Sequence record: PP680568.1
Strand: one strand, 5' to 3'
Source of the DNA: Enterococcus phage VRE9_2
Length of the DNA: 64,000 nt
The position numbers and the translations under genes are program-made. Under the pieces are notes generated by a model, which ran no database searches, was not told the origin of the DNA, and saw nothing but the letters and a program-made list of their open reading frames with translations. Position 1 is the first letter of the stretch, and every line of letters begins with the position of its first letter. Positions 56,221 to 59,606 of this stretch are shown here, in pieces.

Positions 56221-56632
56221 TGGTGGTCAGCATTAGGCTGGGTTCCGGCCGTGCGCGACCGGCCAAAAAATAACACCCCATTATGAGAGAATTCTAATTT
56301 TCACAAATTAAAATAACGGTTTTGGGATTTTGGATTTTTATTCATGTTATTGAATATTAATTCAAGAAGCTGAAAAGCCCGTCATATCAACGTTTTGGGG
56401 CGGTGTTATTTTATAAATTAAGTTTTTTCTGTTATTTTATGTTTTTTAGATAACAAGAGAGTTTTAATTTTTCACAAACTATTATTAAAAAATAACAAAA
56501 ACATTATTAGAAATTTCTAATTTTCTAATTTTGAGAAAAAATTGATTTTCAGAAAATTTCATGAAAACTTTCAAAAATATTTTCATTTTCATAGATTAAA
56601 AAATAGTGAGATTTCTCTCACTATTTTCTTAT
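56221..56632 (+). ncRNA. noncoding module A: GC hairpin + AAAATAACA/TGTTATTTT and TTTCACAAAC repeats + terminal terminator hairpin; candidate sRNA gene or origin element
   Basis: CCGGCCGTGCGCGACCGGCC hairpin then AAAAAATAACAC; repeats; terminator AATAGTGAGAtttCTCTCACTATTTT at 56602-56629; no ORF. Confidence 0.4.
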
Positions 56633-56635
56633 TTC

Positions 56636-57394
56636 TTAATTTTGAAAACTTGCTTCAAAATCTTTCATGTTAATTTCAGAAATTTTTTCAGAATGAACTT
56701 TCGTAGGGATACGCCAACACATTCTATTAATTTTCCGATTCATTTTTTTGTGTTGTTTATAACACCATGCCATTATTGCCGTTTCTATATATACATCAGC
56801 TAGACCAGTATGTTCTTCTACAAAATCGGTTGTTTTCATCATCCAATTATAGGCTACTTCTGCATTAGTTTTCAGATTGCCAGCTTTTGAGTAGTAACCA
56901 TTTTCAAACGCCCACTTTGGAAAACTTTTTTGTGAAAAAATTGTTTGGCAAGCCATATGCCAGATACAATTTATTTCTAAATTTTTTCCTACTTCATAAG
57001 GGAAGAAAAATGGATAATTTGTTAATTCTTGCCATGTATTATTTAAGGCTTTAACAAAATCAAAATAAGCGTTATATGCTGCTACCGTTTTGATATTGTA
57101 TTTTTCTATAATGTTTAAAATAACTCTTCTTACATATCTAAAAGGCTTCACCTTCATAATTCCTTGAGAAATTTTTTCACGATATAAAGGCAATTTTGTA
57201 TAATAATAAGCGCTACGCATTAAAGCATCATCGTCAAAAATTTCTGAAATTGCGAACGAATGTTCTTCATAGATATTGCCTTTTTTGTCAGCTACCACAA
57301 AGCCCACATCATAACATAATGGATTTTTTTCAACGTCGCCGGCTGTTTCTACATCTAATACTAAAATATATTTTTTTCTTTTGTCAATTTTCAT
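56636..57394 (-). CDS. DEDD-family 3'-5' exonuclease-like protein (paralog 1)
   Basis: ILVLDVETAGD (Exo I DxE) near N-terminus, YNAYFD (Exo II); 252 aa. Confidence 0.6.
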   Translation of the reverse strand: MKIDKRKKYILVLDVETAGDVEKNPLCYDVGFVVADKKGNIYEEHSFAISEIFDDDALMRSAYYYTKLPLYREKISQGIMKVKPFRYVRRVILNIIEKYNIKTVAAYNAYFDFVKALNNTWQELTNYPFFFPYEVGKNLEINCIWHMACQTIFSQKSFPKWAFENGYYSKAGNLKTNAEVAYNWMMKTTDFVEEHTGLADVYIETAIMAWCYKQHKKMNRKINRMCWRIPTKVHSEKISEINMKDFEASFQN

Positions 57395-57476
57395 GCTTAC
57401 TTTTCCACCTTTTTAATAAAATATTTTTTTTGAAAAAATTAAAGGCTAGGTTTTTACGCCTAGCCCTAGACGTTTC

Positions 57477-57866
57477 TTAGATAATTTTGTAGCCCACTTT
57501 TTTCTTGTCACTTGTTGCAATTCCTTTTTCTAAAATTCCTTGTTCTACTAGACCTTTTAAGCGTGGGGTCATTTTTTGCGGTGTGTAATCGAACTCTAAA
57601 GCTTCATTGACTTCTTGACTTGTGTAAAATGTTTCTGTGTCTGCTTCTTCAAAGAACCATTCTTGAATTTTTTGCATATCTGCAATTTTTTCTTTATTGG
57701 TCTTGCTTTGGCTAGGTTTGCGGTTAGCGTTACGTTTTTGAGCTTGTTCGCCTTTTTCTACTACAAAATCAATGACTTCTTGTGGTGCTTTCACGTTTGC
57801 CAAGATACGAGCAACTTCTGCAAATTTTTCAGCTACGACTAGTTTTTCAAATTGTGTTTTTTCCAT
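57477..57866 (-). CDS. small protein, TPxxL..KKYKVK-tail family
   Basis: MEKTQFEKLVVAEKFAEVARILANVKAPQEV...TPRLKGLVEQGILEKGIATSDKKKVGYKII; RBS-start TTTAAAAAGGTGGAATTTATCATGGAAAAA identical to that of the 63437 start. Confidence 0.55.
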   Translation of the reverse strand: MEKTQFEKLVVAEKFAEVARILANVKAPQEVIDFVVEKGEQAQKRNANRKPSQSKTNKEKIADMQKIQEWFFEEADTETFYTSQEVNEALEFDYTPQKMTPRLKGLVEQGILEKGIATSDKKKVGYKII

Positions 57867-57922
57867 GATAAATTCCACCTTTTTAAAATTTTGTTAGTAA
57901 GTTGTTCCCTTACTACTCTTTA

Positions 57923-57951
57923 AGTATAAACGATTTTCAATTATTTTGCAA
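57923..57951 (-). promoter_or_regulatory. promoter TTGCAA-17-TATACT for 57477..57866
   Basis: minus strand reads ttgcaaaataattgaaaatcgtttatact. Confidence 0.5.
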
Positions 57952-58030
57952 GTCTTTTTTTGCTTTATTAGAAAATTCTCATTTAAGCTTAAAGAGTAAC
58001 AAGTGAACTTCCCTCTTAAGTATACCATAC

Positions 58031-58155
58031 TTTTTTTAACTTTGCAAGTATAAAGTTTATTTATTTTTCAAAGAACTTTTTGCAATCTCTTTCCTTATCT
58101 CTAATACTATTATAATAAATTTGAAAAGAGATTGCAAGTATAAAGTTTTAAATAA
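58031..58155. repeat. two copies of TTGCAAGTATAAAGTTT (plus partial third at 57943); candidate operator sites
   Basis: aactttgcaagtataaagttt at 58033 and agattgcaagtataaagtttt at 58127. Confidence 0.5.
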
Positions 58156-58774
58156 TTTTATCAATCGTAATTTTTTTGATGAGTGTTTCAAGTGTTTGTT
58201 TTGTTGGTTCTACTAATAAGCGATAATCAGCATGTTTAAATAATCCGTAATCGCTCGCAGTATCTCCCCAAGCCTCTATATAACTATATTCATTTGTATT
58301 TATATTCCACTGAATGCAGTCATCTTTTTGTGATTCTGAAAACATACCGTTAACCTTTCCAGTGAAACAATCGTCAGCTTTTAAATATTCTGTCGCATGA
58401 TATGAACAACCTAAAAAGTTAGCTAAATGCTTAATTAGAAAATCGCTTGAGCCTGTAACAAGAACAACTTCAAAGCCTTGTAAAATTTTTTCTTTTAAAT
58501 CGTTTAAAGTTTCATACCAATTTTTTTCATCTTTCAAAAATTGAGAAACAAACTCTTTTGCGTGCATTTCTTTTTCTGTTTTTCCTGTTATCTCGTTACG
58601 ATAGTTTTCAGCAACGGCAACAATCAAACTTTCATTCTTAACATCTTTTTTCCATGCCTTATAAGAACCGTCATCTTTGATAATTCCTTTTTCAATTAAA
58701 AAACCCGCATGAGATAAAACAACGCTCTTTCTTGTAAGTGTTCCGTCTACATCTGTTAAAATTAAATTTTTCAT
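58148..58774 (-). CDS. HAD-superfamily phosphatase
   Basis: LILTDVDGTLT (DxDxT motif I). Confidence 0.65.
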   Translation of the reverse strand: MKNLILTDVDGTLTRKSVVLSHAGFLIEKGIIKDDGSYKAWKKDVKNESLIVAVAENYRNEITGKTEKEMHAKEFVSQFLKDEKNWYETLNDLKEKILQGFEVVLVTGSSDFLIKHLANFLGCSYHATEYLKADDCFTGKVNGMFSESQKDDCIQWNINTNEYSYIEAWGDTASDYGLFKHADYRLLVEPTKQTLETLIKKITIDKII

Positions 58775-58879
58775 TTCTTTTATCCTCCCTTTATCTTATA
58801 TACTTATTATAGGGGATAAACGATAAAAAGTAAAGCATTTTACACATTAAAATTATTAAAGTTTAATGAGAATTGTTTC

Positions 58880-59280
58880 TAATTTACACACAATTCGCCA
58901 GGCGTTATTTTATAATTAAATAACAGCTTTTCTTTGAACACATGTTATTTTATAAACTTGTAAGCGCTTACAAACTGCGTCAGATCAAGCTTTCAATAGA
59001 TTTTCAGAAATTTTCATTGTTGTTTCAATAACAAGCAAAAATTACATGTGAAATAATTCACAAACATAAAATAACACCCAAGAGGAGAAAAAATAACACA
59101 CTTTGACTTGTGCGCACATTCACATTCTCTTGCTCTCTTGGAATGAAAAGGCTGTGAAAGCTTGGTATAATAGGCTTTCTGATTGTGAAAAAATTCACAT
59201 GCACGGACTTTTGGGATATTAAAATAACATTAAAAAACAATTAAATAACAAGCCAAAAACTTGACAGGGATAAAATAACA
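58880..59280. repeat. iteron field: >10 copies of AAAATAACA / TGTTATTTT 9-mer in both orientations
   Basis: e.g. cgttattttataattaaataacag, tgttattttataaac, ataaaataacaccc...aaaaaataacacac, aaaataacattaaaaaacaattaaataacaagcc, ataaaataacacag. Confidence 0.6.
59247..59278 (+). promoter_or_regulatory. promoter TTGACA-17-TAAAAT directed into module B
   Basis: ttgacagggataaaataacacagtaaaat then GGCGCTCGCC hairpin. Confidence 0.45.
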
Positions 59281-59606
59281 CAGTAAAATGGCGCTCGCCA
59301 GCGAGCGGCCGAAAAATAACGTCCTCTATTTGTTATTTTATTCATTTCACAAACTTTAGTTTCAGGATTCTGTTATTTTATTTTTGAAAATCAGTTTTCA
59401 ATTTATGAAAATGAAAATGAAAGCTTGATACATCAAGGTTTTGGGAACCTCGCCCCGCAATGTTATTTTATCTTCTTCCTTTTGGACTGTTATTTTATTT
59501 TATACATTTCACAAACTTCACTTTTAAAATAACACGTATTTCTTTGTGAAATTTTTCACAAGTAAAATTAAAAAAAGATGAGAAAAATCTCATCTTTTAT
59601 TTTTAT
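59281..59606 (+). ncRNA. noncoding module B (paralog of module A): GC hairpin + iterons + terminator; candidate ~320-nt sRNA
   Basis: GCGCTCGCcagcGAGCGG hairpin then GCCGAAAAATAACG; ATCAAGGTTTTGGG..GCCCCGCAATGTTATTTTA parallels ATCAACGTTTTGGGGCGGTGTTATTTTA in A; terminator AAAGATGAGAaaaaTCTCATCTTTTATTTTT. Confidence 0.45.

Follow-up and report, generated by a model that had tools for sequence, protein, structure and literature searches.

Two noncoding modules, A and B, flank a cassette of exonuclease, winged-helix, and HAD-hydrolase genes in Enterococcus phage VRE9_2, and the question raised by this locus is whether they act as RNA or as DNA. The sequence analyzed is a 64,000-nt stretch of the phage (PP680568.1), hereafter the window, and coordinates are window positions unless another genome is named. 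A previous sequence-only reading had suggested that the modules are a pair of structured small RNAs (sRNAs) or the two arms of a replication origin. Judged by their sequence, A and B appear to be two paralogs of one composite element that acts in cis as DNA: a fixed-geometry array of short, putative protein-binding sites made up of TGTTATTTTAT 11-mers, TTTCACAAAC half-sites, a GC-rich palindrome, a TTGATA-TATCAA block, and palindromes of the Rex type. We favor, with a probability of roughly 0.45, the explanation that these are DNA-level operator or architectural arrays controlling promoter P2, located upstream of B, and the boundaries of a block of early genes.

Modules A (~56236-56500) and B (~59243-59561) are collinear with a mean column identity of 70%, and the elements listed for them in the sequence-only reading are all present in the order and at the positions given there. 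That reading had made its case depend in part on conservation of the module architecture in related phages, and two modules were indeed found at syntenic positions in divergent relatives. The finding is genuine and more extensive than first described. The ~350-bp unit B is real but forms only the right-hand part of a longer noncoding array that spans 815 bp (58775-59589). The strong terminators said to close both modules are likewise real but are actually bidirectional terminators of convergent minus-strand genes; each has a GC-containing stem with a T run after it, the stems show compensatory variation among lineages, and the stem closing B contains the stop codon of the ORF at 59590-59760. 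Both modules had been described as free of ORFs, and no conserved ORF was found: region B contains a single ORF of 60 aa (59058-59240), in which close relatives carry disrupting 1-nt indels, and a 34-codon ORF is open in the divergent relative L080 and closed by a TGA in the window and most lineages. The A/B pair probably traces to a segmental duplication. The winged-helix and exonuclease genes are also duplicated, with paralogs at 63003-63449 and 62190-62921 (amino acid identity 34% for the winged helix and 27% for the exonuclease), and only the first pair is flanked by arrays. If the duplication was segmental, the noncoding copies would have stayed far more alike than these paralogous proteins.

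The dominant feature of the two noncoding regions is the asymmetric 11-mer TGTTATTTTAT, present in ~19 copies in both orientations. For the 9-mer GTTATTTTA, shared by A and B, 3.7 copies would be expected in the window; the number found is 17, a count reached by none of 100 shuffles, and 14 of the 17 copies lie within 56309-59533, in these two regions. With at most one mismatch to TGTTATTTTAT, four sites were found in A and 14 across the 815-bp gap, again in both orientations. In the complete genome of the close relative H1 (138 kb), 11-mer clusters were detected only at 90.4-91.4, 99.8-100.5, and 102.8-103.1 kb, all noncoding. The first of these is a further array, region C, which opens the early block and lies outside the window, and the other two are A and B. 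The TTTCACAAA element pointed out previously is present, but alone it is not significantly enriched in the window (seven copies against 2.7 expected, with 4 of 100 shuffles reaching seven); as TTTCACAAA(C), it is the half-site of an enriched 18-bp palindrome, TTGTGAA-N4-TTCACAA.

Divergent relatives were reached through homologs of the winged-helix protein, with protein identities of 71% (L077), ~50% (L080, L082, L083, and L085), and 38% (L084), and a further relative is a 139-kb contig binned as Carnobacterium (L092/L103; NZ_JBEMAR010000008.1, 139,141 bp). Every divergent relative has exactly two modules, one 3′ of the exonuclease gene and the other upstream of the winged-helix gene, and A is at the syntenic position in all of those named. 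The TTGACA-17-TAAAAT promoter noticed upstream of B, here termed P2, matches the consensus at 11 of 12 positions, and, as proposed, its predicted transcription start is overlapped by the GC palindrome of B. TTGAC(A/G)-17-TAAAAT and the directly adjoining GC palindrome are kept in seven of seven lineages, as is the B terminator. In the alignment of B, 77% of the 11-mer columns are invariant as against 40% of the others (Fisher p = 7e-6), and the 11-mers lie at -57, -36, -5, +36, +48, ~+177, ~+204, and ~+249 relative to the P2 -10 hexamer, with at most 1 bp of variation in six lineages. The upstream 11-mers are spaced by 21, 31, and 41 bp and thus lie on one face of the helix, and one site fills the promoter spacer; repeat spacings overall are 21, 22, 30, 31, and 41 bp. 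The B core shows 74.6% nucleotide identity between the window and L080, compared with 56-75% for neighboring genes, and positions 59205-59395 are identical in five close phages in which the adjoining coding sequence is strongly divergent.

The GC palindromes vary among lineages. In A the loop differs (TGCG, CCCT, or CTCG) with the arms kept, and a C-to-T change in L084 leads to a perfect 7-bp stem; in B a compensatory C-G to G-C exchange is seen in L080 and A-type arms are seen in L085 and L084. These changes fit a hairpin or a two-fold symmetric operator alike. The CTAGCGTGGTGGT block 5′ of the A palindrome is invariant as TTAGCGTGGTGGT in five divergent A modules and is missing from L084. 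No sigma-A-type promoter was found in A at the position matching P2, either in a promoter scan for sigma-A types or by lineage comparison. AT-rich tracts of ~85-90% A+T occupy 56440-56598 and 59330-59420.

A scan of IMG/VR for pairs of 11-mers gave 65 loci, nearly all chance matches in AT-rich viruses and one a true relative; a core 19-mer searched in 185,579 genomes matched at chance level, except for two matches on the 139-kb contig from a Carnobacterium metagenome-assembled genome (MAG); and a metagenome scan with the combined P2 and palindrome pattern gave a single, unrelated match. The Carnobacterium contig carries both modules and the syntenic genes and is of whole-phage size. It is probably a phage of the same family binned into a bacterial MAG, and it hints at a Carnobacterium host for the L080-like clade.

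Five Enterococcus phages of 134-142 kb, H1, EF1, EF5, VRE9_3, and VRE9_4, show 93-94% identity to VRE9_2 over the 3.8-kb region, and one IMG/VR contig is a further close relative. Apart from low-scoring tiny PHANOTATE ORFs, both noncoding regions are unannotated in the records of these relatives. The only paper found to place this clade groups EF1 loosely with phAss-1 and SPbeta-like phages, possibly as a new family (PMC10607447). In H1 the modules sit within a 12.8-kb block of small orphan ORFs (9% of the genome) that carry near-consensus sigma-A promoters and their own terminators; structural genes border the block on one side and tRNA and nucleotide-metabolism genes on the other. VRE9_2 belongs to the EF1/H1 clade. 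The three array regions open this early small-ORF block, mark a boundary inside it, and close it. Region C (H1, OP534061.1, 90430-91530; L080 counterpart 1-1000) is ~1 kb of noncoding DNA between the structural genes and the early block. It carries variants of the 11-mer (GTTATTTAA), frequently paired in inverted orientation at a distance of 12 bp, as well as two perfect cre sites, three palindromes of the Rex type, and others resembling ARG boxes; it lacks the module core and is located in a divergent promoter region. The features of the locus are collected in Table 1.

Table 1. Coordinates of the array elements, promoters, terminators, and cassette genes in the window
Feature	Coordinates	Strand	Remarks
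CTAGCGTGGTGGT block, 5′ of the A palindrome	56215-56227	+	Place corresponding to the -35 region of B
Module A core	56236-56500		GC palindrome, five 11-mers, two TTTCACAAA half-sites, ATCAACGTTTTGGG block
GC-rich palindrome/hairpin of A	56245-56264		CCGGCCG-N-CGACCGGCC, then AAAAAATAAC
11-mer in A	56265-56275	-	TGTTATTTTTT
11-mer in A	56307-56317	-	Two mismatches, exact GTTATTTTA core
TTGAAT-N4-ATTCAA palindrome in A	56349-56366		One mismatch to the ARG-box consensus; weak, as the consensus is degenerate in AT-rich DNA
11-mer in A	56404-56414	+	TGTTATTTTAT
11-mer in A	56430-56440	+	TGTTATTTTAT
11-mer in A	56487-56497	-	TGTTATTTTTT
Bidirectional terminator	56600-56627		End of the exonuclease gene; closes module A
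DEDDh-type 3′-5′ exonuclease, 252 aa	56636-57394	-	DxE, NxxFD, and HxxxxD motifs in alignment; H1 annotation
Winged-helix protein, 133 aa	57477-57878	-	Helical N-terminus, Lys/Arg-rich linker, C-terminal MarR-like winged helix
HAD-family hydrolase, 208 aa	58148-58774	-	Pfam
Left end of array region B	58903-58953		Three 11-mers including the inverted pair GTTATTTTATAATTAAATAAC
Perfect cre (CcpA operator) consensus	58959-58972		TGTAAGCGCTTACA; only exact match in the window
Unit B′, shorter B paralog	59039-59200		Rex-type box 59046-59063, two 11-mers 59066-59098, Rex-type box 59183-59200
Extended -10 promoter-like site inside B′	59143-59171
Three phased 11-mers (59219, 59240, 59270)	59219-59280	-	Third occupies the P2 spacer
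Promoter P2	59261-59289	+	TTGACA-17-TAAAAT
GC palindrome of B	59292-59307		CGCTCG-CCAG-CGAGCG
Body of module B	59310-59534		11-mers, GAAAAT hexamer run, TTTCACAAAC at 59345 and 59507, GAAAGCTTGATACATCAAGGTTTTGGG at 59418-59445
11-mers in the B body	59310, 59331, 59371, 59461, 59488, 59524	-, +, +, +, +, -
Bidirectional terminator	59573-59598		Shared 3′ end of the putative P2 transcript and of convergent early gene 59590-59760

Besides the 11-mers, the arrays contain palindromes resembling the operators of host regulators. Three Rex-type palindromes are present in the B region, one matching at 18 of 18 positions (59544-59561, TTGTGAAATTTTTCACAA) and two, those of unit B′, at 17 of 18. TTGTGAA-N4-TTCACAA is what we take to be the Rex operator consensus of Firmicutes. 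With up to two mismatches, H1 contains seven Rex-type matches against 1.4 expected genome-wide; six of the seven are in regions B and C, and three are perfect. The same palindrome could serve a phage-encoded protein or another Crp/Fnr-type host factor (TGTGA-N6-TCACA). Exact matches to the cre consensus, used here as TGWAANCGNTNWCA, number five in H1, all at 91.0-100.4 kb in the early block, where 0.3 were expected and the maximum in 200 shuffles was three, and the exact consensus recurs in L077, L080, and L084. Scans with the CodY and ARG-box consensus sequences gave resemblances that are too degenerate at 30% GC to be more than weak.

The operator reading fits best because the sites are regularly placed about a promoter that is itself conserved, boxes for host regulators are present, and array C is located in a divergent promoter region. 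From the observed sites, their geometry, and the promoter, we infer binding proteins, looping, and a regulatory outcome as follows. A sequence-specific DNA-binding protein, most likely phage-encoded, would cooperatively occupy the phased 11-mers; the prime candidate is the winged-helix protein, whose gene lies between A and B. Occupancy of the 11-mers near -57, -36, -5, and +36 of the -10 hexamer, on one helix face, would switch P2, a host-type promoter, which probably produces a noncoding transcript of ~300 nt reaching the bidirectional terminator, convergent with the early operon. Rex and CcpA would probably feed redox and carbon inputs through their consensus boxes. The promoterless module A would be a second anchor of this protein, either marking a boundary or looping to B over the 3-kb cassette. 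In a doubtful extension of this reading, three noncoding hubs would run the host-takeover block through a phage iteron-binding protein together with Rex and CcpA, so that early development is gated by host redox and carbon state; a stronger version would have DNA entry or terminal-repeat processing gated as well, as a Gram-positive counterpart of the two-step injection of phage T5.

Several points weigh against the operator reading. Module A has no recognizable promoter to regulate, and the strong early promoters at 60140 and 59820 carry no 11-mer, so the repeat is not a general early-gene operator. Module B is wholly gone from the metagenomic relative L068 (IMGVR_UViG_3300045988_176702) through a clean deletion (59182-59544) between two Rex-type boxes, which means that B is dispensable, that it is redundant with B′ and A covering for it, or that the contig is misassembled; the deletion itself could be natural repeat recombination or an assembly collapse. 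The Rex and CcpA labels of the palindromes come from literature consensus sequences, and the winged-helix protein is a candidate 11-mer binder by adjacency and one lineage correlation. Finally, phased iterons, an AT-rich tract, a promoter, and a GC palindrome suit a replication origin equally well.

The proposed pair of structured sRNAs was not supported. In that explanation, which we consider improbable, the modules would encode two trans-acting structured sRNAs of ~320-400 nt or a protein-sponge RNA with repeated UGUUAUUUUAU motifs. The conservation of P2 and the B terminator in seven lineages does indicate that B is very probably transcribed, the folding z-scores are low (-3.5 for B and -4.9 for A), and one compensatory pair is found, in the GC palindrome only. 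However, the low energies arise from the terminators and from helices in which copies of a single invariant repeat, in opposite orientations, pair with one another, and the pairing partners differ between A and B. Folding of A, B, and homologs, one of the checks suggested by the sequence-only reading, gave no common fold, with RNAalifold covariation scores of +0.15 (A versus B) and +3.09 (six B lineages), and the left part of A (+1.6 and -0.12 on the two strands) gave no support for a conserved fold. One helix partner is lost without compensation in the Carnobacterium lineage, A lacks a promoter, and the 11-mer occurs in both orientations, upstream of P2, and in the promoter-type region C. The absent covariation, the pairing of repeats, the lost partner, and the presence of the motif outside the predicted transcript together favor recognition of double-stranded DNA. 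The GC palindrome had been taken for a 5′ clamp of a stable RNA, but normal spacing from the -10 hexamer would put the start at the end of its 5′ arm, so that the hairpin is probably outside the RNA. At the gathering threshold, Rfam matched only tRNAs in the window, and the best sub-threshold matches in A and B (E of at least 0.12) were terminator hairpins. A tRNA-like left part of A was considered because TTAGCGTGGTGGT resembles a tRNA D-arm with two mismatches, and was rejected because ARAGORN and Rfam were negative and no T-arm could be drawn.

Among DNA-level alternatives to operator arrays, a replication origin is unlikely but is the more probable one. The 11-mers would be iterons for a phage initiator, the GAAAAT-repeat AT-rich tracts would be unwinding elements, and P2 would supply transcriptional activation or an RNA primer (compare T4 oriF/oriG, T7, ColE1, and lactococcal phage c2), with A and B resembling oriL and oriR of SPP1. 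The idea of two origin arms agrees with the phased direct and inverted repeats at 21-22 bp spacing beside the AT-rich tracts, with the conserved promoter reading into the AT-rich body, with the GC palindrome and the same boxes in both copies, and with the adjacent small winged-helix protein as a potential site-specific binder. However, DnaA boxes are at chance level (19 against 21 expected) and absent from the modules, no initiator family is seen among the neighboring proteins, and the helicase, primase, and polymerase genes are ~70 kb distant. The missing promoter in A and the apparent natural loss of B in one relative are further difficulties, region C with its cre and Rex boxes looks regulatory, and GC skew tracks transcription direction only and says nothing independent on replication. 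Likenesses to sigma-54, ssoA CS-6 (TAGCGT), P1 parS, and integration host factor (IHF) sites were considered and dropped. Appreciably less probable than an origin is a cis element like those of T5, located in an early region that would be terminally repeated and enter the cell first. The arrays would then be a repeat boundary, a packaging cut, or an injection stop held by host DNA-binding proteins, for which the T5 injection stop signal (iss) with its DnaA boxes is the suggested parallel. The arrays do bracket the early block with its consensus sigma-A promoters and individual terminators, cre and Rex-type boxes are confined to the array regions, and the nuclease, DNA-binding protein, and phosphatase encoded in the block recall, by analogy only, T5 A1, A2, and dmp. 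Against this, A and B are single-copy in each of the five database genomes (H1, EF1, EF5, VRE9_3, and VRE9_4), the record starts look arbitrary, no homology to T5 proteins is seen, the phage groups loosely with SPbeta/phAss-like phages (PMC10607447), and the two modules repeat in direct orientation, unlike the inverted units of T5.

The arrays belong to no curated family and are best seen as a variant of phage repeat/operator regions with an unusually rigid geometry and apparent use of host-regulator sites. The 10-kb pre-early terminal repeat of T5 contains three untranslated repeat regions, better conserved than the ORFs, with paralogous 131-bp units ~3.2 kb apart and phased boxes for the host factor DnaA (Davison, bioRxiv 10.1101/866236). 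Both phages have several large noncoding repeat regions among small early genes that outconserve the ORFs, with paralogous units ~3 kb apart, phased host-protein boxes, and single copies that are dispensable in some relatives. However, the T5 units are inverted and carry DnaA boxes, whereas the units here are direct, carry 11-mer, Rex-type, and cre boxes, and show no homology; the terminal repeat and two-step injection are T5 features, and the comparison covers array architecture alone. The SPbeta repeat element SPBRE of the Bacillus prophage SPbeta was first found in silico; MrpR, the master repressor of that phage, was later shown to recognize it at sites that overlap promoters (PMC10516654). 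Like the 11-mer, it is short and recurs between genes in a large phage of Firmicutes, one loosely related at the family level, but it is a single 15-bp site at ~10 dispersed promoters of a temperate phage, whereas the phage studied here has 5-14 copies per region in three regions, is apparently virulent, and leaves most strong early promoters siteless. Iteron origins (plasmid Rep_3/pCI305-like, SPP1 oriL/oriR, lambda ori) likewise have clustered repeats at intervals of some two helical turns, with an AT-rich tract and a GC palindrome close by, and SPP1 also has two related copies per genome; in the putative origin considered here, the repeats are 11 bp, non-contiguous, and of mixed orientation, and no initiator gene contains or adjoins them. 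The virulent phage phi29 has Spo0A boxes at early promoters as well as parS sites. It is a lytic phage with consensus sites for global DNA-binding proteins of the host in early control regions, tying development to host physiology, although the regulators differ from the Rex-type and CcpA-type boxes predicted here.

The exonuclease, winged-helix, and HAD labels given to the cassette genes were right, as judged by DEDDh motifs, a fold model, and Pfam, respectively. The model of the 133-aa winged-helix protein has a pLDDT of 86.8, and its similarity to MarR-like winged helices is generic only; PDB sequence searches with this protein and the exonuclease were uninformative. The most divergent winged helix is that of L084, where the otherwise invariant TPQKMT of the recognition helix reads TSQRMT. 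In this lineage 11-mers are nearly absent and TGTGAA sites are numerous, with the promoter and palindrome kept. In the distant relative L071 (MT835855.1), another asymmetric motif, TTGCACAAA, is arrayed in analogous gaps. The change of motif in L084 and L071 suggests co-evolution of the arrays with a phage-encoded protein. L071 and L069 (MT837012.1) are contigs with distant relatives of the exonuclease, and each has an over-represented motif of its own; the former has 13 matches to the asymmetric ATTGCACAAAA, clustered in noncoding gaps, and the latter 15 matches to a palindrome, AAAGTGCCGGCACTTT.

The clade of 134-142 kb Enterococcus phages (EF1, EF5, H1, VRE9_3/4) and their Carnobacterium-associated relatives is almost unstudied, although vancomycin-resistant E. 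faecium was the subject of the work that yielded some of its members. Few sequences of the clade are as well conserved as the array regions, yet in every record they are unannotated or covered by spurious tiny ORFs. If they are control sites, they would provide a regulator-operator pair and a promoter usable for phage engineering or attenuation, as well as a rare example of a lytic phage whose DNA has consensus sites for redox and carbon regulators of the host. Were they origins or terminal/injection elements instead, they would establish how a candidate new phage family replicates or enters the cell. Whichever reading is right, the fixed geometry of the sites offers direct targets for electrophoretic mobility shift assays (EMSA), chromatin immunoprecipitation (ChIP), and mutagenesis.

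Additional promoter-like and repeat features were noted around the modules. The minus-strand promoters of small early ORFs at 59820-59792 and 60140-60112 are of the extended sigma-A type and match the consensus at 12 of 12 and 11 of 12 positions, with a TG upstream in both cases; each of these ORFs has its own terminator, as is typical of a host-takeover module. Seventeen tRNA genes are clustered on the plus strand at 35475-44836, with small ORFs interspersed. The gap between the HAD and winged-helix genes (57879-58164) contains three promoter-like units, TTGCAA-17-TATACT/TATAAT, with the sequence TTGCAAGTATAAAGTTT, and the long inverted repeats I3 and I9. At the left edge of module A (56060-56151), a near-consensus minus-strand promoter (56151-56123, TTGATT-17-TATAAT with an upstream TG), seen by eye in L080 and L084 too, points into the terminator of the convergent 389-aa gene and would yield a short two-hairpin RNA antisense to the 3′ end of that gene; this segment gave a weak sub-threshold Rfam match to ctRNA_pND324 (E = 0.21).

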